Shown in pieces: positions 36,684 through 58,370 of a DNA stretch of 64,000 nucleotides (positions are counted from its first letter, which is position 1; each line of letters starts with the position of its first letter). Under the pieces are notes generated by a model. That model was not told where the DNA came from. It did not search any database and saw only the letters and a program-made list of their open reading frames with translations. Source of the DNA: a virus. Its lineage: Duplodnaviria > Heunggongvirae > Uroviricota > Caudoviricetes. The DNA is taken from the IMG/VR virus record IMGVR_UViG_3300031707_004017; one strand, written 5' to 3'. The position numbers were made by a program, and so were the translations under genes.

Positions 36684-37575
36684 ATGATTTCATTAATTAT
36701 CTGGTCATTTATCGGTCTATTCCTATTCATTACATTATGCAATAGCATTGTATTTGTGAAACAGCAATCACTAGTAGTATTAGAACGCCTTGGCAAATTT
36801 AAAAGGATCGCTACTGCCGGAATGTCGTTCAAAGCACCATTCATAGACAACAAAGCTGGAACAGTCGAACTGCGCATCCAACAACTCGATGTTAAAGTTG
36901 AAACAAAAACTCTTGATAATGTATTCGCAACAGTCTTAGTATCTGTACAATACTTCATTGATGAAAAGAGCGCCTACAATGCTTTTTACAAATTACGTGA
37001 ACCTCACAAACAAATTACTTCTTACGTCTTCGATGTAGTACGAGCAAAAGTACCATCTCTCAATTTAGATGATGTATTTGCTAAAAGATGAAATTGCAAA
37101 CGCTGTAAAAAGCGAATTAACAGAAACAATGGACGATTTTGGCTACGGCATTACAAAAGCACTCATCACAGACATTGACCCTGATTCAAAAGTCAAAGAC
37201 GCAATGAACGAAATCAACGCTGCTCAAAGGTTACGAATGGCCGCAACAGAAAAAGGTGAAGCAGAAAGAATCTTAAAAGTAAAACAAGCAGAAGCAGAAG
37301 CACAAAGCAAAGCACTACAAGGCAAAGGCATCGCAGACCAAAGAAAAGCTATAGACGGACTAAAATCATCTGTAAATGACTTCAAACTGGCCGTAGAAGG
37401 CAGCTCGTCCCAAGACGTAATGAACCTCGTCCTAATAACACAATACTTCGACATGCTCAAAGAAGTCGGAATCGGAAGCAAAGCGATCTTAATTCCCTAT
37501 TCAGCAGGCGGAGCTAAAACAACAGCTGACGAAATCAGAAACGCTCTTATGATTGCATCAGAAACAATAAAATAA
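36684..37575 (+). pseudogene. SPFH/band-7 (stomatin/HflK-like) gene split by frameshift at A4 run ~37084-37087
   Basis: ORF1 ...VVLERLGKF...LNLDDVFAKR* and ORF2 (+1 frame) DEIANAVKSELTETMDDFGYGITKALITDIDPDSKVKDAMNEINAAQRLRMAA together reconstruct one SPFH domain; N-terminal TM helix. Confidence 0.65.
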
Positions 37576-38589
37576 ACAATTACGTAACATCGACGACGAA
37601 CATTGCACTCTCACTCAACGACTTTCAACTTGATTTAAACAATGTCACAAATAATTGATGATAACACTCTAAAATGTCAATTTTCTTTTGAATCATAAGA
37701 AGATCTCAATGTTTCGTAAGTACACGTTTACATGGATGGTTACTACATTGGTTAGGTTTTATTGTTTGCCGAATAATGATCCTCCATAAAATATGGTAGA
37801 AAATTGTCACATCTTACAATCTACCGTTGCGCAACCGTTGTGCGAAAGAATTTTTTCTTTTTGGATCCTAAACGGTATAGGAGCGCTCAATGGATATCGT
37901 TGAATTTTTCAATCCCTACAGTGTAGAACATCTCAAAGCCTATGAACATTTATCTACATGGAAAATGGCCCACAGACTTCATACTGAAAAATTTGGAATA
38001 TTCGAGAGAATGTCTGGCAGGTCGGGATAGTAAATAAAATGGCAAATGCTTGGCTCGAACAAGCTAAAGCAGGACATATTTTTGGCATGCCTCATTTTGA
38101 TCAATAACTAGACTCACACACAAAAAAACTAATCTCTTCTCTACCCAAAAAATGAGAACTAAAGAACAACCCTTTCTTAATTGGACATACACTTGTGATA
38201 TTTGCAAAGACAATATCATTATAGTATCCACCAATGATAGGATCTGTTAGATTACCTGAAAAGGTTGGGAAGAACTCACGTTTTGTATCTATTTTAGCAC
38301 ATGTTTGTCCTAAACAAGAATGCAAAGAAAAAGCAAAAATTGCTTTTCCAGATTATTATTATGAAGAACAACAAATTATCGTTTCTAATTGATTCCAGAT
38401 CAAACACAAATTGAAAAAATGATAGACGCCCTGGATAGGACAGAGATAAATGAGAATATCTCTTTAGAGTATTTCTCAATGATCGTAGCAGGATGTCTGA
38501 TGACAAAAATGAAAAGATCGATTGGATAGATTTACAAGGACATAGCTCACAATTGGTTAGAGCGCTACGCTGTCACTAATCTCCCCACC

Positions 38590-42652: not shown

Positions 42653-42904
42653 ATGAATGCGCGCCAGATCAAGAAACTCATGTTAAATGAACTGGACATT
42701 CCCAGACACAAGATCGAGTATGTAATCTCTCGTCCAGTCCTCGTCCAGGGTTTATGGGGTTGCTTGGCTGCATACGGCGTCGAACACGATCGAGAAAATC
42801 ATGAATTGCTGGTCGAAATCGTGCAAGACAAGTTAAATGAACCGGATATTGAAAGAGAGTGGAGTGAACTCGAATATGAAACGTTTGTAAAATGGGGGTC
42901 GTAA
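42653..42904 (+). CDS. hypothetical protein (start MNARQIKK, SD GGAGG)
   Basis: Internal Met with SD inside ORF 42584..42904. Confidence 0.45.
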   Translation: MNARQIKKLMLNELDIPRHKIEYVISRPVLVQGLWGCLAAYGVEHDRENHELLVEIVQDKLNEPDIEREWSELEYETFVKWGS

Positions 42905-44025
42905 AAATGCCTAAGAAAAGCTTTTGGACATCGCAATCGCGTTACGGCACTTACGAGGGCGAGAAGGGAAATCCTGGACAATGGTCATCATCATTCGGCT
43001 TCACCTTCGAAAACTCCAACTCGGTGAAATCGATCATGGGAATGACTGCTTATTCGATACTCGACCTCAAACCCTCAGCCAGCGACGATGCCGTGCGCAA
43101 TGCCTTTCGTAAACTAGCAAAACGCTATCATCCCGATAAGGGTGGCAATCGAAACAAGTTTGAAGAAATCACGACTGCTTACGAGACCATTAAAAACATG
43201 CGAGGCACGTCGAACCATACTCGCTCATCGAGGGCCCAAAATATGCACGGCCCGACAGTCCAATCGGAGCTTATTGTCCCACAACTGCTCACTGAGATCG
43301 AAGAGTCTGAATTAGCGACGTATTTATCCGATGATAATTTCGCATGCCAAGAGAAAAAAGACGGCAAGCATTTGACGTTACAGATACTCGACGGCCAATT
43401 TATCGTGCGAAATAAAAAAGGAATCGCATCGAGTTGTATGCCGGAATTTGAACCTGCAATACGGTCAGTCGGCCTTGATTTGCTCATCGATGGCGAACAA
43501 ATCGGTACCACATTTTGGGCGTGGGACGTGCTCGAATATGCAGGACAAGATCTTCGTAGTGAGTCGTATTATTCGAGGTATCTTAAATTGTCTGGAATAA
43601 ATTTCGGACCCGAGATTCAAGTGCTTAAGTTAGTGACAGGGACAGATGCAAAAACTCGATTCTACAACGAGCTAAAAAATGCGAACAAAGAAGGAATCGT
43701 ATTCAAGAAACTAGTGGGGATATTTAGTCCGGGAAAAGGTTTAGACCAATTGAAATTCAAATTTTATACAGAGTGTTCTGTGATAGTAGCTGCAGGTCGT
43801 CCGGGAAAAGCGAGCATCGGAATGGAATTGATTGGTCAAAACGGACGCGAATTCGTGGGATATTGTTCATGTAATCGTCACCCACCGATTGGAAGCGTCG
43901 TAGAAATCAAATATTTGTATGCATATCCGGGCGGTTGCCTTTATCAGTCTAGTTTCAAAGAACCGCGTGATGATGTCTCAGTCGATGAATGTACGATTTC
44001 GCAATTGAAATATAAACCGCTTTGA
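42892..44025 (+). CDS. DnaJ J-domain fused to minimal ATP-dependent ligase-type nucleotidyltransferase
   Basis: J domain YSILDLKPSASDDAVRNAFRKLAKRYHPDKGG (HPD); ligase motifs I KKDGKH, III LLIDGEQ, IIIa FWAWDVL, IV EGIVFKK, V LKFKF. Confidence 0.75.
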   Translation: MGVVKMPKKSFWTSQSRYGTYEGEKGNPGQWSSSFGFTFENSNSVKSIMGMTAYSILDLKPSASDDAVRNAFRKLAKRYHPDKGGNRNKFEEITTAYETIKNMRGTSNHTRSSRAQNMHGPTVQSELIVPQLLTEIEESELATYLSDDNFACQEKKDGKHLTLQILDGQFIVRNKKGIASSCMPEFEPAIRSVGLDLLIDGEQIGTTFWAWDVLEYAGQDLRSESYYSRYLKLSGINFGPEIQVLKLVTGTDAKTRFYNELKNANKEGIVFKKLVGIFSPGKGLDQLKFKFYTECSVIVAAGRPGKASIGMELIGQNGREFVGYCSCNRHPPIGSVVEIKYLYAYPGGCLYQSSFKEPRDDVSVDECTISQLKYKPL

Positions 44026-45579: not shown

Positions 45580-46503
45580 TCATGAATTCATGTCAAAAAG
45601 TGACCGTTGTGCCGGTATTATATTATGTGACAAGTGCGTTTCGGGTTCCGATCCGTCATACTGACTATATGGATTGTTCGCAGAAATGCGAACGACTTTT
45701 CCAGTGGGATTTACTGTACATCCGCGTTGCAATGATGTCACTTTCGTCGATACGACTTTCGTCGGTGCTGCTGCCCAATCAACGTCGTCTTCTTTGGGTT
45801 TGATTTCGCCTTTCCGAATAAATTTGTTTTTTGCTAAATCGAATTCAAGCAGCTCGAATTCATAAATTGTACCGAAGCTCACTTGAGGGAAAAGTCCAAA
45901 ATCGCTTTTGATGTCTAGTGCTTTCTTAAGCAAGCTTTTCGTCGATGCGAAGAATATCATATTGTGGCAATAACCTATTGCTAACGGTCGATTGTCGTCG
46001 GTCCAAAAATAAATCTTCTTTATCGTCTTATTGTAAAGAACTATTGTCGCGCTACCATTCATATTTTTGATGGCATTCTTAATGCCCTGTCGTTGGATAT
46101 ACGAAAGGATAACTTCTGAGTCGACATCTTCGCTCGTATATTTATAATTAGCGATTTTCGGCATGCGGACTGTTCCGTTATGGATTATGATCCAATCTTT
46201 GGATTCAAATGGGTGAGCATTGATGTCTTTTGTTCGACTCTCGGGAGTGGTGTTAGACGAAGCTGCACGATCATGACCTAGCACAAATCGTTCATTAGCG
46301 AGTTCAGCGATGACTCGACCTCGCTTGACGAATTCTGTTGCCGTAATTGCTTCTTTTACGATACCGAGATTGGGTGCGTAATAACCTGTAGCATCGGTCC
46401 CACGAATCTGAGTCTCTATGAGACCTTTTTCGAAGATTTTAACGAGATCAAGATTGGTTTCTGTCTTAATGGTCGGTTTTATCCAACCAAATATTCCACA
46501 CAT
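45580..46503 (-). CDS. class II glutamine amidotransferase (Ntn hydrolase) domain protein, stand-alone
   Basis: MCGIFGW N-terminal Cys nucleophile, RGTDATGY, GHDRAASSNT...NAHPF, IIHNGTV: full GATase-2 motif set; no fused synthetase domain. Confidence 0.8.
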   Translation of the reverse strand: MCGIFGWIKPTIKTETNLDLVKIFEKGLIETQIRGTDATGYYAPNLGIVKEAITATEFVKRGRVIAELANERFVLGHDRAASSNTTPESRTKDINAHPFESKDWIIIHNGTVRMPKIANYKYTSEDVDSEVILSYIQRQGIKNAIKNMNGSATIVLYNKTIKKIYFWTDDNRPLAIGYCHNMIFFASTKSLLKKALDIKSDFGLFPQVSFGTIYEFELLEFDLAKNKFIRKGEIKPKEDDVDWAAAPTKVVSTKVTSLQRGCTVNPTGKVVRISANNPYSQYDGSEPETHLSHNIIPAQRSLFDMNS

Positions 46504-46560
46504 CCGCGCCTCCTATATATTTAATCAAACTATTTTGCATAGATGGACCATTCTCATTGC

Positions 46561-47229
46561 TTATTCTTCAGAGTCACAACGAACTGTTGCAGTCCCGTCC
46601 AACCGTAATTTCATCTGCTTCACAGGATTCGCTGCTCGAATTAGTTTGAGCATTTTCTTTTTATCTGAATTTTCCCAGACTTGTTTCCAATACTTAGGCA
46701 TTGACTTCTTCAACACGTTCATCATCTTTTCCGTTATCGGCTTACCGGTCAAAAACCATTTGGCAAAGCTGCACAAAATGTGACCGTCGTGGCCAGTAAA
46801 ACCGACATTGTTTCGAATCGTCGTCATTTCGGTCTGTTGTTCAGCAATTGTTTGGTGGTTGAAAATAAGCACAAGCGCTTTCGTAATCCACCGGGGATCA
46901 GTGCGGAGCTTTTTCTTAATGAACTCCTTGATTTCATCTTGTTTGATCGTGTGGAAGAGGTCCCAATATTCTTCCCAATCTTTCATGAAATTGAACGCGT
47001 CATCGATATTATCTTGCCATGATGACTGCTCTGATAAAGCGATAAAGTCAGCACCAACACCGTGCTTTTCTTGATATTTCGTCAACGGCATGTTGACCGT
47101 TATACGCGGTTGGTCGAAGACTAATTCCGCCCTTAAAAAGGCCGCATACTGTCTGAGTTCATCGATAGTTTTCATGATAACCAGGTTTCTATGCATTAAG
47201 TACAGATCTCGCGTTTGCATGCCGCTCAA
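46561..47229 (-). CDS. hypothetical protein (222 aa)
   Basis: ORF track. Confidence 0.55.
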   Translation of the reverse strand: MSGMQTRDLYLMHRNLVIMKTIDELRQYAAFLRAELVFDQPRITVNMPLTKYQEKHGVGADFIALSEQSSWQDNIDDAFNFMKDWEEYWDLFHTIKQDEIKEFIKKKLRTDPRWITKALVLIFNHQTIAEQQTEMTTIRNNVGFTGHDGHILCSFAKWFLTGKPITEKMMNVLKKSMPKYWKQVWENSDKKKMLKLIRAANPVKQMKLRLDGTATVRCDSEE

Positions 47230-47554
47230 TATATGACTGTTGACAATTCATTTCTTCGGCGACTTTTTTGTCGTATTCAATCTTGAGAGAAGCCAGTCGG
47301 TTTGGATGGTTCGCGATTTTCTGTGTGCATTCTTCGACTTCTCGCAGCGCTGAATATCTTGAGTCAGCGTAGACCGAGTAGCCGCCGGATGATTGTCCCC
47401 GACTGAGCGGGTCCGGAGGTTCTCTCACCAGCGTAAAATGTGCGCTGGAATATTTGATCCGAATCTCTGCTAGTTGCCGTTTAACAGCTTCTTTGTCCCA
47501 GCTGTAGATGCCGGTGAAGCTGAGTCCTTGTTCGTGTGCCTTTTGTTTTGTCAT
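47189..47554 (-). CDS. hypothetical protein (121 aa)
   Basis: ORF track. Confidence 0.5.
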   Translation of the reverse strand: MTKQKAHEQGLSFTGIYSWDKEAVKRQLAEIRIKYSSAHFTLVREPPDPLSRGQSSGGYSVYADSRYSALREVEECTQKIANHPNRLASLKIEYDKKVAEEMNCQQSYIERHANARSVLNA

Positions 47555-47754
47555 AAGTCACCACTTTCCAAGCAACCGCGCTCGTACAATGACATCGTCT
47601 CTTCAATTTGGGCCTGTTCGTCCAGATTTACATCGGCCAATCGCTGCTCCATCAAGTCCTTTGCCGTATCAAGGACATCGATCTGCTCTGGAGTATAGCA
47701 ATGGTCAAACGACGTTGAACCCTTCCTCGCAAAATCATCGGCTAAATGCATCAT
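47551..47754 (-). CDS. hypothetical protein (67 aa)
   Basis: SD AAGAAGGAGGATAAG before ATG; downstream of conserved element. Confidence 0.45.
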   Translation of the reverse strand: MMHLADDFARKGSTSFDHCYTPEQIDVLDTAKDLMEQRLADVNLDEQAQIEETMSLYERGCLESGDL

Positions 47755-47796
47755 TTTCTTATCCTCCTTCTTAATAATATAATCAAGTAATCTGCA

Positions 47797-47975
47797 TGTG
47801 CGAGCTCAAAATATGACCGTTTAAGTAGTTGATTTCTATAGACTTATAAAACTTACTATTCAAACACATAGAATATCGTCAAACGACAACGGACATATTT
47901 TGAGCAGTCAATGATTTCAGAGCCTTATGAGATTATCTCAGATTAGGTTTATGACAAGAGGTATAAAACCATTAC
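47797..47975. promoter_or_regulatory. conserved upstream element copy 2 (includes AAGTAGTTGATTTCTATAGACTTATA at 47823..47848)
   Basis: 26-nt block identical to 50999..51024; shares GGTATAAAACCAT and TCAGATTAGG with copy 1. Confidence 0.6.
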
Positions 47976-48029
47976 TAAAGATTTTAAACTAATCGGAGTG
48001 CTTTAGATACGTTTTAAATTCGATGGGGG

Positions 48030-48479
48030 TTAAACGGTCTTATTTTGAACTTGCAAGTCAGTACGCTCTTTACGTGCCTTACACCAGTCGCCGCTCACAA
48101 TTCGTTCGTAATGTCCGTTTTGGAAATGTTTTCCACCAATATAAACCCAAACTCGTTTTCCAGATTTCGTCGTCGCTTTCTTCCTTAAAAACAAATCGTT
48201 CGTATGATCGTATCTCAAATGATATCCTTCAAAATGGTCGAGAGTGCCAATGACATGACTGTAAGTAGTCTCATAAACTTCACCAACAACCCGGTCTTTA
48301 TTCGATTGAGAAAAACTGATATAAGGATAAGCCCAGTTAGCACTAAAAAGCTTGCCTCGAATTGAATCATAGCAGATGAATGTTGCGCCGCTTAAAAGAT
48401 TAGAACGACTGTCAGCTTTCCTAAGAGTACCATAAACGAAGATTAAGACTTTGTCATTTTTTTTCATCGAGGACCTCAT
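48030..48479 (-). CDS. gamma-glutamyl cyclotransferase-like (AIG2/GGCT fold) protein
   Basis: VLIFVYGTLRK N-terminal YGTL motif and downstream GEVYE catalytic-Glu context. Confidence 0.65.
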   Translation of the reverse strand: MRSSMKKNDKVLIFVYGTLRKADSRSNLLSGATFICYDSIRGKLFSANWAYPYISFSQSNKDRVVGEVYETTYSHVIGTLDHFEGYHLRYDHTNDLFLRKKATTKSGKRVWVYIGGKHFQNGHYERIVSGDWCKARKERTDLQVQNKTV

Positions 48480-48480
48480 A

Positions 48481-48511
48481 AAAAAGGGCTAAAATATATA
48501 GCCCCTTTTTG
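48481..48511. terminator. hairpin terminator between convergent-orientation minus genes
   Basis: aaaaAGGGCTaaaatatatAGCCCCttttt. Confidence 0.45.
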
Positions 48512-48529
48512 AACACCTTTTCTGGAGAA

Positions 48530-48883
48530 TTAAGCTGCCGCAACTTCTGTCTTGCGAGTCCGCTTTGCCTTGGAAATGTCGCCCATAACATTATTGATGG
48601 CCGCTGTAACAGCAGCCTGCACAGCTACATTGAGTTCTGCGCTTTTGGCGATTGCGGCATCGATGCGCTTGTAGAGCTTTTCCGGAACACGATTGATCTT
48701 TAGGCCTTTGACGGCGAGCTTGACTGCTTTCTTCGTCATCGACCGAGCGCGTTTGAGAGTGCGATTGAGTTTTGCGACTTTGATGACCAGCCGTTTTTTG
48801 GCTTTTTTCGCTTTGGAATGCCGCTTTTTCTTGCGATCGATTTTCAGAGATTTCGGCTTCCGTTCACGTTTTCCTGTTGCCAT
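48530..48883 (-). CDS. highly basic Lys/Arg-rich small protein (117 aa), possible nucleic-acid-binding
   Basis: KRERKPKSLKIDRKKKRHSKAKKAKKR...; contains the segment shared with 27867..28613. Confidence 0.5.
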   Translation of the reverse strand: MATGKRERKPKSLKIDRKKKRHSKAKKAKKRLVIKVAKLNRTLKRARSMTKKAVKLAVKGLKINRVPEKLYKRIDAAIAKSAELNVAVQAAVTAAINNVMGDISKAKRTRKTEVAAA

Positions 48884-48949
48884 TCATACACCTCCTTGAG
48901 TTATAGATTAAAGACAGATTTAAATAGCAGTGAAAGCTCTGTCGTGTGA

Positions 48950-49372
48950 TCAATCACCGCTGGATGCTTCGTCCTGTCGCTGATGAGCCTCTTCACGAGC
49001 GACATCGAGAATACTGAATTTCACCGATGAAGCGCCGATGGCCTTGAAAAACTTCGTCAATTGTTCTTGCACCTTTTTGGTCCCGTTCTTGCCGTGGCGA
49101 ACCGCATGGGACAGAAGGATGTTTGATTGCGCCTTGATGCCGATCCAATTCATACCGATCTTCGACAAGAACTTCGACTTTTCGACCAACTTGAGAGCGG
49201 CAATCGATGGTTCGCTGACATGTATGATGTTGGACGGCGCATGGCGCCACTCGGCCAATCCACGAATCGACAACGTCGAAACATCGACGCGTTTCGTGTC
49301 CGGGAAATTTACGGTACCGGTGAGGTTGAGACCCTCATCATCCGTATTGAATTGAAGCGTTACTTCCTGCAT
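48950..49372 (-). CDS. hypothetical protein (140 aa)
   Basis: ORF track. Confidence 0.5.
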   Translation of the reverse strand: MQEVTLQFNTDDEGLNLTGTVNFPDTKRVDVSTLSIRGLAEWRHAPSNIIHVSEPSIAALKLVEKSKFLSKIGMNWIGIKAQSNILLSHAVRHGKNGTKKVQEQLTKFFKAIGASSVKFSILDVAREEAHQRQDEASSGD

Positions 49373-49435
49373 GTTTGCCTCCTATTGGTTATGTATGTGT
49401 AATCAGTTAATCTGTGATTTTTGGTCCATTTTTTC

Positions 49436-50695
49436 TTAAGCTTCTACTTCTCTACGCATTTTTTTACGCACGCACGTTTCGAAGATTCTCGCGATATCTT
49501 CTGACATATTGGGATTCGACGCTCTCGAGTTGTAAAACACTGAATTGTTTAATGGATTCGATTGCACGCGTGAATCTTGGCTTGTAGTCGACACCAAATT
49601 CCTACGATGGATTTCGATGAAGCGCGCCCGGTATTGACTGCTTCGAGGAATTTTCAAAAATGGCCGCAATTCTTTACTGAAATAAATCGTGTTCGGTCTT
49701 AATCGGATATCCCGTGAAAGCTGTAATTGCCACGGTGTGTAATCGCCAAGGGGATAGATTCGAACTTCTGATACTGCAAACCGGCAGACTTTGAAAACTG
49801 TCTCCTGTTCGAATTCGTTCTCCCGATGAATTATCTTTAACTGGCAAATCTGTAATTGAATCCTCTCCGATCCCCGACGACTGCGACGGCTAGTTGCAGT
49901 CACATCCGATTGGATTAAATTGGGATTAGGATTAGTCCACAATTCTATACAATTAGGATTGTCCAATCGGTATGTTTTCGAAAATACGATTCGCTTGAAA
50001 TTCGCGATCTGAGTCGCATAATAGGATTGTTCCGGTCCTGATTCCGGTACGAGCATCGCATATTCGCGCTTCCTCGCGACTCGTTTCGCAGTAATGAGGT
50101 GATCGAACGCAGTCGGTTTTACTTGCCACATCTTAGCGATCTGGTATGCGATTGCCAGCACCGATTCTGCTAAGACGGGATCAGTGATCCACGACGGCGG
50201 CGTCCGATATTCGAAACCATGAGGTTGCATTCGCACATCGCCCGGTTTTCCATAAGATTGTCCGCTCCTTTTCGCACCGGGCACTTTTTTCAATCGTAAA
50301 CCTAGAAAATAATCGAGAGTCGTGATTAGTCGGCCTTGATGATTGTTACCAAAATTTGTTTGCCGACGGCGTCGACCATGATCATGGCTACTCCAAAAAG
50401 AATCCCAAGACATTCCAAAATGGATGTGCCCACCAGTAGCCTCGTGATATTGTTCACCGCCGCCGCATACAATCTTTATCTGGGGATGATGAGTTTTTAC
50501 ATGATGGAAAAGGTGCCTGAGGTTTTCGACCACTTGAGTAGGCGTTCCCGGCGCTGGCCGCATCTCACCGACACGGTTACCGTGATCCGACCCAACTTCA
50601 CCATACCGACTCTGATAACTGATATTACATAAAATACTTCGATTTTCTGGACCGACCACCATAAATTCAGGATCACATCCCAATGTCAATGGCAT
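49436..50695 (-). CDS. glutamine synthetase-fold amidoligase (GCS2/Amidoligase_2-like)
   Basis: N-terminal strand TLGCDPEFMVV (metal-binding acidic pair), GEMRPAP, and TGGHIHFGMS (GS-like HxH motif). Confidence 0.6.
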   Translation of the reverse strand: MPLTLGCDPEFMVVGPENRSILCNISYQSRYGEVGSDHGNRVGEMRPAPGTPTQVVENLRHLFHHVKTHHPQIKIVCGGGEQYHEATGGHIHFGMSWDSFWSSHDHGRRRRQTNFGNNHQGRLITTLDYFLGLRLKKVPGAKRSGQSYGKPGDVRMQPHGFEYRTPPSWITDPVLAESVLAIAYQIAKMWQVKPTAFDHLITAKRVARKREYAMLVPESGPEQSYYATQIANFKRIVFSKTYRLDNPNCIELWTNPNPNLIQSDVTATSRRSRRGSERIQLQICQLKIIHRENEFEQETVFKVCRFAVSEVRIYPLGDYTPWQLQLSRDIRLRPNTIYFSKELRPFLKIPRSSQYRARFIEIHRRNLVSTTSQDSRVQSNPLNNSVFYNSRASNPNMSEDIARIFETCVRKKMRREVEA

Positions 50696-51090: not shown

Positions 51091-51299
51091 GGTAATATAC
51101 CTTCTTAAAATTTACCTCTATCGCTATTTCAAAATTGACGTAGATAAAAGCGATGTCTCATTAATTGACTGCCATATTTTGAGCTCGCACGCACATTCTA
51201 CTTGATTATTATACTAACATGAAAATCTTTCTTAATGCATAGAACAATGGACCAAGATTCAAAGATAATGTGATTATAATCTTAACTTAGAGGTATCTA

Positions 51300-52581: not shown

Positions 52582-52821
52582 GTGGTACAAATGACAGCTA
52601 AAGATTTACAATTAATACTTAGTCTTGTAAACGCAAATGGTGGTTCGACTTTTAAACGAGCATGGAAAAATATTTGCATTTACATCAAAAAAGTTCAAAA
52701 ACCTTCACGTTACAAACCAATTATACCATTATCATGTGTTGGATGTGTTGGTGGCGGGTCTCGTTGCTATACATGTGTTCGTAATGTAAAAGAAGATAGA
52801 TATTATAAACATGACGACTAA
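52582..52821 (+). CDS. small Cys-rich protein (79 aa)
   Basis: CVGCVGGGSRCYTCVRN. Confidence 0.4.
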   Translation: MVQMTAKDLQLILSLVNANGGSTFKRAWKNICIYIKKVQKPSRYKPIIPLSCVGCVGGGSRCYTCVRNVKEDRYYKHDD

Positions 52822-53428
52822 CCAGATACAATACTTTTATCCACCCAAACCGACTCGAATCTGGCCCGATTCACCGCTCGTCGTGAGCTTTGCCGACTCT
52901 TTAGACTGGATTGCTGAAATCAAACTCAACGGCTGGCGCATCTTGCTTTTCATACTCGCCGATTCGATTCAAATCTACAACAGCAATGGCTCCGTCATCG
53001 ACATCGACCACGAAATTTTTCGGCCACATTTTGAGCGCTTTCCTGCCAACACAGTCTTCGACGGCGAGCTCCTCGATAAACGGACGAAGACACTCAAAAA
53101 TGTCATGGTATTCTGGGACACGTGCTTTTATAACGGCCTCGATGTCCGTCGAAAACCACTCAAAGAACGCAAGCAGTATTTAAAGTTCCCTATTGCACCT
53201 TTAACATTTGTCCAAAAACCAACAGCCCAAATCTTTAAAAGTCAACAATTCAACGACGATTTCCTCAACCTATATAACCAAACTATCACTCGTAACGATC
53301 CCCTCGAAGAAGGCATCGTCATCAAAAATCTATCGTCAACTTACAAACACAATCCAAAACGAAGTATTGACATTCTAGACTGGTTCAAAATCAAAAAAAT
53401 CGACGACCATGCGCTTGTTAACCGGTAA
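52811..53428 (+). CDS. minimal ligase/nucleotidyltransferase-like protein with atypical motif I (KLNGWR), paralog of 42892..44025 C-terminal domain
   Basis: I EIKLNGWR (N in place of D), III VFDGELL, IIIa VMVFWDTCFY, IV EGIVIKN, V DWFKIKK; FWDTCFYNGLDVRRK aligns with FWAWDVLEYAGQDLRSE. Confidence 0.6.
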   Translation: MTTNQIQYFYPPKPTRIWPDSPLVVSFADSLDWIAEIKLNGWRILLFILADSIQIYNSNGSVIDIDHEIFRPHFERFPANTVFDGELLDKRTKTLKNVMVFWDTCFYNGLDVRRKPLKERKQYLKFPIAPLTFVQKPTAQIFKSQQFNDDFLNLYNQTITRNDPLEEGIVIKNLSSTYKHNPKRSIDILDWFKIKKIDDHALVNR

Positions 53429-58013: not shown

Positions 58014-58040
58014 TTCGGCAGTAGCGCGGACGTTGGCCAG
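58014..58040. repeat. left flanking direct repeat of the 11-bp array (ttcggcagtagcgcggacgttggccag)
   Basis: Matches 58478..58505 (ttcggcagtaacgcagacattgggccgg). Confidence 0.6.
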
Positions 58041-58370
58041 ATATTGGCCAGATATTGGCCAGATATTGGCCAGATATTGGCCAGATATTAGCCAGATATT
58101 GGCCAGATATTGGCCAGATATTAGCCAGATATTAGCCAGATATTAGCCAGATATTAGCCAGATATTGGCCAGATATTGGCCAGATATTAGCCAGATATTA
58201 GCCAGATATTAGCCAGATATTGGCCAGATATTAGCCAGATATTAGCCAGATATTAGCCAGATATTAGCCAGATATTGGCCAGATATTAGCCGGATATTGG
58301 CCAGACATTAGCCAGATATTAGCCAGATATTGGCTGGACGTTAGCTGGATATTGGCCGGATATTGGGCGG
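58037..58370. repeat. 11-bp tandem repeat array CCAGATATT(G/A)G, ~24 exact-length copies plus ~6 degenerate
   Basis: Read directly: ccagatattgg ccagatattgg ... ccagatattag ...; unit length equals one helical turn; no spacers. Confidence 0.9.

Follow-up and report, generated by a model that had tools for sequence, protein, structure and literature searches.

A divergent, single-ligase member of the phiEco32/LUZ24-type amidoligase cassette in uncultured large phages

The 64,000-nucleotide stretch of phage DNA analysed here (the window) carries a PF14395 ligase, a class II glutamine amidotransferase (GATase, or GAT-II) and a gamma-glutamyl cyclotransferase (GGCT) in one gene block. The locus belongs with the known phiEco32/LUZ24-type cassettes, in a reduced and divergent form, and does not represent a new system; its novelty lies in the divergent lineage, the single ligase, a private domain in that ligase and two constant partner proteins. 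The first-pass annotation had proposed a novel system, but the cassette is already annotated in hundreds of phages (LUZ24, phiEco32, PaP3, tf, RIO-1, Vp_R1 and others). It also passed over the lack of the canonical ATP-grasp and second amidoligase, the private domain, the two partner proteins and the loose placement of the GATase in relatives. It was correct that comparative genomics had predicted the core combination (Iyer et al. 2009, as reported in PMC5498523, PMC10580990 and PMC11945000), and also that no substrate is established, the literature offering only speculation for any member of the cassette. We consider it an even call that this one-ligase divergent cassette encodes a pathway that installs and removes gamma-glutamyl groups on a low-molecular-weight amine or short peptide.

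All genes of the block lie on the minus strand. The ligase (49436..50695, 419 aa, a long-form COOH-NH2, i.e. carboxylate-amine, ligase) and the stand-alone class II (Ntn) GATase (45580..46503, 307 aa) bound a span of 5,116 nt, in agreement with the first description of three same-strand ORFs within about 5 kb, and the GATase lies 4.2 kb downstream of the ligase. Between them, from the ligase onwards, are a 140-aa partner protein that is kept in the lineage (48950..49372), a very basic Lys-rich protein of 117 aa (48530..48883), the GGCT (48030..48479, 149 aa, a gamma-glutamyl(amine) cyclotransferase of the AIG2/GGACT family), two small ORFs of 121 and 67 aa (47189..47754) and a 219/222-aa protein (46561..47229). 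The small ORFs match no family in Pfam or PHROG profiles and are not conserved, except that the 121-aa ORF is kept in one relative. No convincing minus-strand terminator was found between ligase and GATase. A weak sigma-70-like promoter match (51208..51235, minus strand, TTAAGA-16-TATAAT, 10/12) lies between divergent genes, upstream of the block, in a sequence where the count of promoter-like sites is not above shuffle expectation.

The ligase matches PF14395 (phiEco32-like type 2) with an E value of 1.4e-27 (97 bits, cut-off 25) and phrog_3815 (“COOH.NH2 ligase”). It is made up of an N-terminal domain (residues ~1-255) and a C-terminal beta-rich domain (~278-415). The GCDPEF and GGHIHFGMS motifs are both present, and the GS/GCS2 catalytic fold proposed from them is upheld, for the N-terminal domain, by the profile and by structural matches. 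Residues D8, E10, E44, H90, H92, E162 and R164 are invariant across the long-form ligase clade; PF14395-wide, LUZ24 gp16 included, D8 and E10 are nearly invariant and the other five strictly so. These residues would correspond to the metal and ATP ligands of GS (acidic DxE strand, Glu, His and ExR). The ligase sequence has no detectable match among PDB chains; by structure, the top match is a small-molecule-type ligase, and Dop and PafA rank second and third. The rank of Dop and PafA counts, as a separate observation, against a small-molecule pathway. Structural identity to YbdK/GCS2-type ligases, gamma-glutamylcysteine ligases and glutamine synthetases (1tt4, 3ig5, 2gwc, 8pvg) is 9-17%, and the C-terminal domain of the phage ligase is missing from these enzymes. 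This domain of ~140 aa is private to the subfamily (15 clusters in a set of 1.84 billion representatives) and, together with the always-adjacent 140-aa protein, probably supplies substrate or partner recognition.

The GATase matches GATase_6 (E 4.3e-13), GATase_7 (2.3e-6) and phrog_4736 (4e-28), and consists of a catalytic domain (~1-230) and a poorly conserved tail (~235-307), with no fused synthase or acceptor domain. Its motifs MCGIFG, RGTDATG, NAHPF and HNGT are all present. C2, R34, R79, N109-G110 and D128 are invariant in an alignment with the GATases of the lineage, of LUZ24 and of Vp_R1, and with the N-terminal domain of E. coli GlmS. A match to the NCBIfam EgtC model (E 0.0023, far short of the cut-off) is only suggestive. 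The best matches in deposited phages are cassette GATases, and homologues occur in 318 of 50,697 deposited phage records. The partner of the GATase could be the ligase or the conserved 219-aa neighbour, the C-terminal half of which matches phrog_21015 (E 1e-19). Four of five relatives encode this neighbour upstream of their GATase, immediately so in three and at a distance of at most 0.7 kb in L008; elsewhere in phages the phrog_21015 domain is a stand-alone ORF of ~100 aa that does not adjoin a GATase. The GGCT matches PF06094 (E 3.8e-16) and phrog_2520 (E 3.5e-19), and both its YG(T/S)L motif (VYGTL, residues 15-19) and the Glu of GE(V/I)(Y/F) (GEVYE in the window) are kept across the lineage. 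The three original domain assignments are thus borne out by profile matches, and the catalytic residues are kept in all three enzymes.

The lineage consists of very divergent, uncultured large phages (contigs of 50-416 kb). Deposited phages give no DNA match, and no match to the ligase or 140-aa protein at E<=1e-5; weak ligase matches in them lie 2-3 kb from GATase matches in the same genomes. The ligase, GATase and GGCT families are found within 10 kb of one another in all five independent relatives (40-51% ligase identity), where they are among the few conserved genes of an otherwise poorly conserved early region. Among 24 unrelated IMG/VR loci that encode a PF14395 ligase, 15 have a GAT-II within 10 kb of it; GGCT was detected in three of the 24 with local profiles of uncertain sensitivity. 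Chance does not account for this three-gene linkage. Of the three, the GATase is linked most loosely: in relatives it is 4-10 kb away with variable genes between, and in L007 it is on the opposite strand, and for this reason it may work independently. Such variable, opposite-strand genes parting the GATase from the ligase and GGCT would be expected if there were no common pathway, the three being independent auxiliary genes (for glutamine/glutamate/nitrogen metabolism or for glutathione/gamma-glutamyl turnover) that share nothing but synteny in a conserved early region; for one phage with the cassette, a nitrogen-AMG role has been put forward (PMC10945688). We consider this very unlikely, as the three families recur as a tight operon in unrelated podovirus and other lineages, the three genes are kept across this lineage when little else of the early region is, and the AMG claim is without biochemical support.

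The tightest conserved neighbours of the ligase are the 140-aa protein and then the Lys-rich protein. The former has a basic alpha/beta core of orphan fold, invariant polar residues that include D12, N16, R43, H44, N48 and H51, and an acidic C-terminal tail that varies within the family in length and terminal residues. The latter (22% K, pI 11.6, net charge +31; 22-28% K across the family) is encoded beside the ligase, 140-aa and GGCT genes in all five relatives, with the common motifs SLKI, RLxIKxAKLxRT, PEKxY..ID and AVQAAV; it is a possible nucleic-acid binder and a candidate for partner or target. The constancy of a Lys-rich and an acidic-tailed neighbour is what a pupylation-like system would predict, in which the ligase makes gamma-glutamyl-epsilon-lysine bonds on the Lys-rich, 140-aa or host proteins and the GGACT and Ntn-GATase erase or process them. 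The GGACT family is defined by its activity on epsilon-(gamma-glutamyl)-lysine, and the private domain of the ligase could dock a protein. However, the known GGCT-family enzymes act on free small gamma-glutamyl compounds and not on intact proteins, the top structural match of the ligase is of the small-molecule type, and the adjacency of the genes may merely be lineage synteny. The C-termini of the 140-aa family are not conserved and lack a Pup-like GGQ or GGE, its invariant polar residues resemble an active or binding site more than a tag, and no other candidate for a small tag with a conserved C-terminal Gln/Glu was found. In comparison with PafA/Dop pupylation, there is no proteasome or Mpa context, and the removers (Ntn-GATase and GGCT) have folds unrelated to the ligase, while in pupylation the remover Dop and the ligase PafA are paralogues. 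Although peptide tagging was proposed for related systems by Iyer et al. 2009, according to papers citing that work, we regard a pupylation-like system here as unlikely. Distinctly unlikely is reversible lysine gamma-glutamylation, with the ligase, 140-aa protein, Lys-rich protein and GGACT writing pupylation-like isopeptides on a histone-like, nucleic-acid-binding phage protein or on host nucleoid proteins, the GGACT or Ntn-GATase erasing them and the C-terminal domain docking the target.

The module is surrounded by DNA-metabolism genes (DNA ligase-like, HU, PolX and NAD-ligase), and all of its proteins are basic. On these two features, a small molecule is no better a fit than a macromolecular target (nucleoprotein or nucleic acid). 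The features are also compatible with DNA or nucleotide hypermodification, where ligase and amidotransferase would decorate a modified base, as are the GmrSD_N-like genes and, in some relatives, the radical SAM gene near the module. [quoted passage not shown] Yet no dUMP hydroxymethylase, 5-hmU kinase, aGPT-Pplase, TET/JBP or DpdA/QueC-type gene was detected at 31.9-64 kb of the window (at reduced sensitivity), within +/-10 kb in the five relatives, or in the flanks, and the window lacks a homologue of the radical SAM gene that adjoins the GATase in L003-L005. We therefore hold hypermodification to be highly improbable. For the anti-defence role raised in the first-pass annotation there are no PADLOC matches, and no evidence supports either anti-defence or DNA modification.

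The gamma-glutamyl install-and-remove pathway that we favour is argued for by the family and fold assignments, the intact catalytic residue set of all three enzymes, the closeness of the three families in all five relatives, the independent recurrence of ligase and GAT-II (with GGCT in part) in unrelated phages, and the likeness of the window GATase to the cassette GATases. We infer its chemistry in its entirety from established biochemistry. GCS2/GS enzymes make gamma-glutamyl amides, and GGCT/GGACT/BtrG enzymes cleave gamma-glutamyl amines. The GS/GCS2-fold ligase would, at the expense of ATP, join an activated carboxylate to an amine, the carboxylate most likely being the gamma-carboxyl of glutamate, and so give a gamma-glutamyl-type amide bond; with one ligase in the lineage, only one such bond can be made. 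The Ntn GATase would either pass ammonia from glutamine to the ligase or hydrolyse the gamma-glutamyl amide in the manner of EgtC, and the GGACT-type cyclotransferase would take the gamma-glutamyl group off as 5-oxoproline and free the amine. The pathway would be expressed with the early and DNA-metabolism genes, and its most likely acceptor would be a low-molecular-weight amine or short peptide.

The lineage can be seen as a natural minimal version of the cassette: it has one ligase where the canonical cassette has three, and its GATase and GGCT genes are short and stand alone. This points to a persistent core of ligase, GAT-II and GGCT. The substrate question has stood since the 2009 prediction and touches therapy candidates such as LUZ24-like phages, which also carry the cassette. 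The minimal cassette alone leaves that question unanswered and shows no new kind of biology. It does provide new partner or target candidates (the 140-aa orphan protein, the Lys-rich protein and the private C-terminal domain of the ligase), and reconstitution in vitro is simpler for a system that makes a single bond, which could ease testing of the substrate.

Characterised ligase-plus-remover pairs follow the same chemical logic. In EgtA/EgtC (ergothioneine), BtrJ/BtrG (butirosin) and PuuA/PuuD (putrescine catabolism), the ligase adds a gamma-glutamyl group and the remover strips it, EgtC being an Ntn-GATase-like hydrolase and BtrG a GGCT-fold enzyme. The likeness is in that logic only: these pathways belong to cellular metabolism, secondary or primary, and not to phage early genes, and none of their other genes are present here.

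The pairing of GAT-II with a ligase also matches known glutamine-dependent amidations, and it could serve the envelope, GAT-II giving ammonia to the GS-fold ligase for amidation or extension of a carboxylate of the peptidoglycan stem peptide, to the end of superinfection exclusion. A role of this kind has been hypothesised in the literature for the canonical cassette (PMC5498523, PMC11945000, PMC10580990), which has been termed the amidoligase or “peptidoglycan modification” cassette (Iyer et al. 2009; Hardies et al. 2013, cited through PMC5498523 and PMC11945000). For this lineage we find it decidedly improbable. The hypothesis, as yet untried by experiment, rests on three ligases forming three unusual linkages, whereas the lineage has one, without ATP-grasp or Amidoligase_2; there is no evident signal peptide or link to the envelope, and DNA-metabolism genes stand near the module instead of cell-wall, lysis or membrane genes. 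No RimK-type ATP-grasp was matched in the 64-kb window by a local HMM of 19 cassette ATP-grasp proteins, nor any ATP-grasp Pfam family at 31.9-64 kb; none occurs within +/-10 kb in the five relatives, or in ~10 kb past the right and ~9 kb past the left window edge (~20 kb of the contig being unseen). By a local ligase profile, the window and each relative have one ligase ORF only and no second amidoligase (Amidoligase_2, LUZ24 gp18 type), while 16 of 24 other IMG/VR loci have two to three; PF12224 is likewise absent from the precomputed annotations.

With the cassettes of phiEco32, LUZ24, PaP3, tf, RIO-1 and Vp_R1 the locus has in common the PF14395 COOH-NH2 ligase, GAT-II and GGCT, and a site among early and DNA-metabolism genes; the weak matches of its ligase are LUZ24 gp16 and Vp_R1 gp070. 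The cassette proteins share only 20-30% identity with those of the locus, and the gp17-like protein of the canonical cassette is missing. The GATase is shorter (307 versus 510-542 aa), without the Cys-rich C-terminal part, and the ligase is longer (419 versus 246-266 aa) because of its private C-terminal domain. Finally, the locus has two lineage-specific partner proteins, and it is carried by large phages (contigs of 50-416 kb), where the canonical cassette is found in podoviruses of ~45-77 kb.

The three enzymes of the triad are all encoded on the minus strand, at exactly the coordinates claimed in the first-pass annotation, and profile searches place each of them in a known family, with PHROGs in agreement with Pfam for all three and every Pfam match exceeding the curated cut-offs. 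The glutamine amidotransferase (GATase, 45580-46503, 307 aa) belongs to GATase_6 (E 4.3e-13) and GATase_7 (E 2.3e-6) and to phrog_4736; the gamma-glutamyl cyclotransferase (GGCT, 48030-48479, 149 aa) to GGACT (E 3.8e-16) and phrog_2520; and the ligase (49436-50695, 419 aa) to PF14395, the “Phage phiEco32-like COOH.NH2 ligase-type 2” family (E 1.4e-27), and phrog_3815. All motifs quoted in that annotation are found, and on alignment the catalytic residues are kept in all three proteins. In the ligase, D8, E10, E44, H90, H92 and E162-Y163-R164 are invariant across the long-form clade, and in a broad PF14395 sample that includes bacterial members and gp16, the ligase of LUZ24, E44, H90, H92 and E162-Y163-R164 are again invariant and D8 and E10 nearly so. 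GATase residues C2, R34, R79, N109-G110 and D128 are invariant among the GATases of the lineage, those of the canonical (phiEco32/LUZ24/RIO-1-type) amidoligase cassette and the N-terminal domain of E. coli GlmS. Both YG(T/S)L and the glutamate of GE(V/I)(Y/F) are retained in the GGCT.

The linkage of the triad holds in related genomes: ligase, GGACT and GATase_6 genes are found within 10 kb of each other in all five independent relatives (metagenomic loci L003/4, L005, L006, L007/11 and L008, ligase identity 40-51%), where most of the early genes around the triad are unconserved. In every relative an ORF of ~140 aa directly follows the ligase, with a Lys-rich ORF and the GGCT within 0.5-3 kb; L006 and L007 have the GGCT upstream and divergent. 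The GATase, usually with an ORF of ~200 aa before it, is located 4-10 kb off, and L007 has it on the opposite strand. In this lineage the ligase and GGCT are more tightly linked to each other than to the GATase. The cargo between module genes differs, being a PolX-PHP polymerase and an NAD-dependent DNA ligase in L003/L004 (L003 13171-16796), and GmrSD_N (DUF262) proteins in L005 (20706-21242) and L007 (16934-17467). The early region of this lineage is thus very plastic outside a small set of conserved genes. Two proposals on GATase neighbours were rejected, a radical SAM enzyme as its partner and the phrog_21015 domain as a part of the cassette. The radical SAM enzyme adjoins the GATase in L003-L005, yet has no homologue in the window, and the radical SAM/SPASM enzyme found in the same phage ~9 kb past the window's left edge (L037 18218-19128), beside very large PKD/Laminin_G tail-fibre-like genes, is not orthologous to it. 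The phrog_21015 domain of the 219-aa protein encoded directly upstream of the GATase occurs elsewhere as an isolated ORF of ~100 aa with no GATase nearby.

Beyond the lineage, the window GATase as query matches 318 deposited phage records, and weak ligase matches sit 2-3 kb from the GATase matches in the same genomes, including Vp_R1, APT65 and LUZ24-like phages. Among 24 unrelated IMG/VR loci with a PF14395 ligase, some of them truncated, local profiles detect within 10 kb of the ligase a GAT-II in 15, an ATP-grasp enzyme in 16, a second or third GS-like ligase in 16 and a GGCT in three. Relatives, deposited phages and IMG/VR loci together establish the triad as a real and recurrent association.

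Ligases of the GCS2/GS type carry out ATP-dependent gamma-glutamyl amide formation, enzymes of the GGCT/GGACT/BtrG type release the gamma-glutamyl group as 5-oxoproline, and Ntn-GATases either supply ammonia taken from glutamine or, like EgtC, hydrolyse gamma-glutamyl amides. Only folds, motifs and linkage are observed directly here, and from this family enzymology we infer the remainder: the ligase would make one gamma-glutamyl bond on an amine, and the cyclotransferase and GATase would act on bonds of that type. We give about an even chance to such a pathway, in which a single gamma-glutamyl bond would be installed on, and removed from, an amine acceptor. The acceptor is more probably a small molecule or peptide, since the top-ranked structural neighbour is a ligase of the small-molecule type and every characterised GGCT substrate is a small molecule.

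The main rival, which we consider unlikely, is a pupylation-like modification of proteins, as suggested by similarity to Dop/PafA, by the Lys-rich neighbour and by a docking-like domain private to the ligase. This conserved, beta-rich C-terminal domain spans about residues 278-415. A search of 1.84 billion proteins with its profile retrieves no more than 15 representative clusters, every one from the subfamily of this ligase; full-length matches carry it at the C-terminal end, and three short matches (65-199 aa) are probably fragments. The possibility that the C-terminal half of the ligase is a fused protein of the LUZ24 gp17/Vp_R1 gp069 type, the hypothetical protein encoded next after the ligase in canonical cassettes, was rejected (hhalign probability 0.1-0.2%). 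The Lys-rich protein itself (48530-48883, 117 aa, 22% lysine, pI 11.6, net charge +31) is kept in all relatives with real motifs. However, the 140-aa family lacks the conserved C-terminus of a Pup-like protein. Its window member (48950-49372), a conserved candidate partner of the module, has 52-71% identity over 76 homologues, exceeding the conservation of the ligase, with D12, N16, R43, H44, N48, H51, K71, N75, R92, Q102 and K107 as invariant polar residues and a variable, acidic tail of net charge about -6. The tail had raised the idea of an SSB-like OB-fold, which was rejected: the fold of the model is alpha/beta, and neither an OB-fold nor any other structure matches it significantly.

The module proteins are all basic and some relatives carry HU, PolX and NAD-ligase genes near the module; with the DNA-ligase-like neighbours, this gene content hints at a nucleoprotein setting. 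Two ATP-dependent DNA-ligase/capping-enzyme-like nucleotidyltransferases, one of 377 aa with an N-terminal DnaJ domain (42892-44025) and one a minimal 205-aa adenylation domain (52811-53428), lie on either side of the amidoligase module and are conserved in 5/5 relatives. DNA hypermodification (PMC8989533) is nevertheless disfavoured, as no hallmark gene was detected in the window from 31.9 to 64 kb (at reduced sensitivity), in the relatives' neighbourhoods and in the flanks; a setting of thymidine- or 7-deazaguanine-type modification was rejected on the same grounds. The nitrogen-AMG idea (PMC10945688) has no biochemical basis. The anti-defence role raised in the first-pass annotation is not supported: a search of defence and anti-defence catalogues gave no PADLOC matches, and nothing else spoke for or against it.

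By its gene content the window is phage-like: it encodes baseplate-wedge-like and Ig-domain tail proteins, and PKD/Laminin_G fibre proteins are found past its left edge. Nearly all its non-structural genes are ORFans. No megablast match to the region is found among 50,697 deposited phages, nor any tblastn match (E<=1e-5) to the ligase or the 140-aa protein. The relatives come from metagenomes only, on contigs of 50-416 kb, one being an IMG/VR viral genome, and a search of 185,579 representative genomes of bacteria and archaea gave no copy of the 140-aa family, the most conserved marker of the lineage. Searches for host or prophage clues gave no tRNAs and no Rfam matches, and a promoter/terminator scan gave no more sites than expected from shuffling. 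GC content steps up near 38000: it is ~0.32-0.37 in the 1-38 kb that hold the structural genes and 0.39-0.46 in the early/ORFan part (38-58 kb). One SPFH/Band_7 domain (E 2.3e-23) is divided between two overlapping plus-strand ORFs in different frames (36684-37091 and 37069-37575), which reflects a frameshift, whether programmed or a sequencing error, or else a disrupted gene. At 58036-58364 an array of ~30 head-to-tail copies of the 11-nt unit GCCAGATATT(A/G), free of indels and 92% matched, falls in a region poor in ORFs (~57.0-58.4 kb) in which the GC skew flips to +0.28. The array is not read through by any ORF, and its period, approximately one helical turn, suggests phased binding sites for proteins, of an origin, iteron or pac-like kind. 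About 6-10 kb past the right edge, the same contig (L036 1-4357) carries a NAPRTase/Nampt-family NAD-salvage gene, of a type reported from phage counter-defence pathways, plus an IS605 OrfB/TnpB-like gene, a cpYpsA (SLOG) gene and an RlaP nucleotidyltransferase.

A conserved module of GGCT, ATP-grasp enzyme, GAT-II/aminohydrolase, gamma-glutamyl amidoligase and COOH-NH2 ligase is described in phiEco32, 7-11, LUZ24, PaP3, tf, PA11, RIO-1, CW02 and others (PMC5498523, PMC11945000, PMC3517423, PMC10580990). Where these papers discuss its role, it is, after Iyer et al. 2009 and Hardies et al. 2013, proposed to form unusual peptide linkages and modify the cell wall (PMC5498523, PMC11945000, PMC10580990). 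In annotated examples the ligase (246-266 aa) comes first, then a hypothetical protein (~190-200 aa), the amidoligase (clear in LUZ24), a GATase of 510-542 aa, the ATP-grasp enzyme and finally the GGCT. In contrast, the window has a single 419-aa ligase with an added C-terminal domain and a short GATase without the Cys-rich C-terminal part; neither ATP-grasp nor second amidoligase is found in the 64 kb, in ~10 kb past the right edge or ~9 kb past the left, or within +/-10 kb in the relatives. Cell-wall modification fits this reduced form poorly, since the three linkages are impossible and the envelope context is absent. The proposal of a novel system is not supported, the cassette being already known from phiEco32, LUZ24, RIO-1 and others, while the annotation itself and the view that the substrate is unsolved were right. 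The module in the window is a new form of this known, uncharacterised phage cassette, both minimal and divergent, and is mainly of value because it offers an easier starting point for the substrate question and supplies new candidates for partner proteins.
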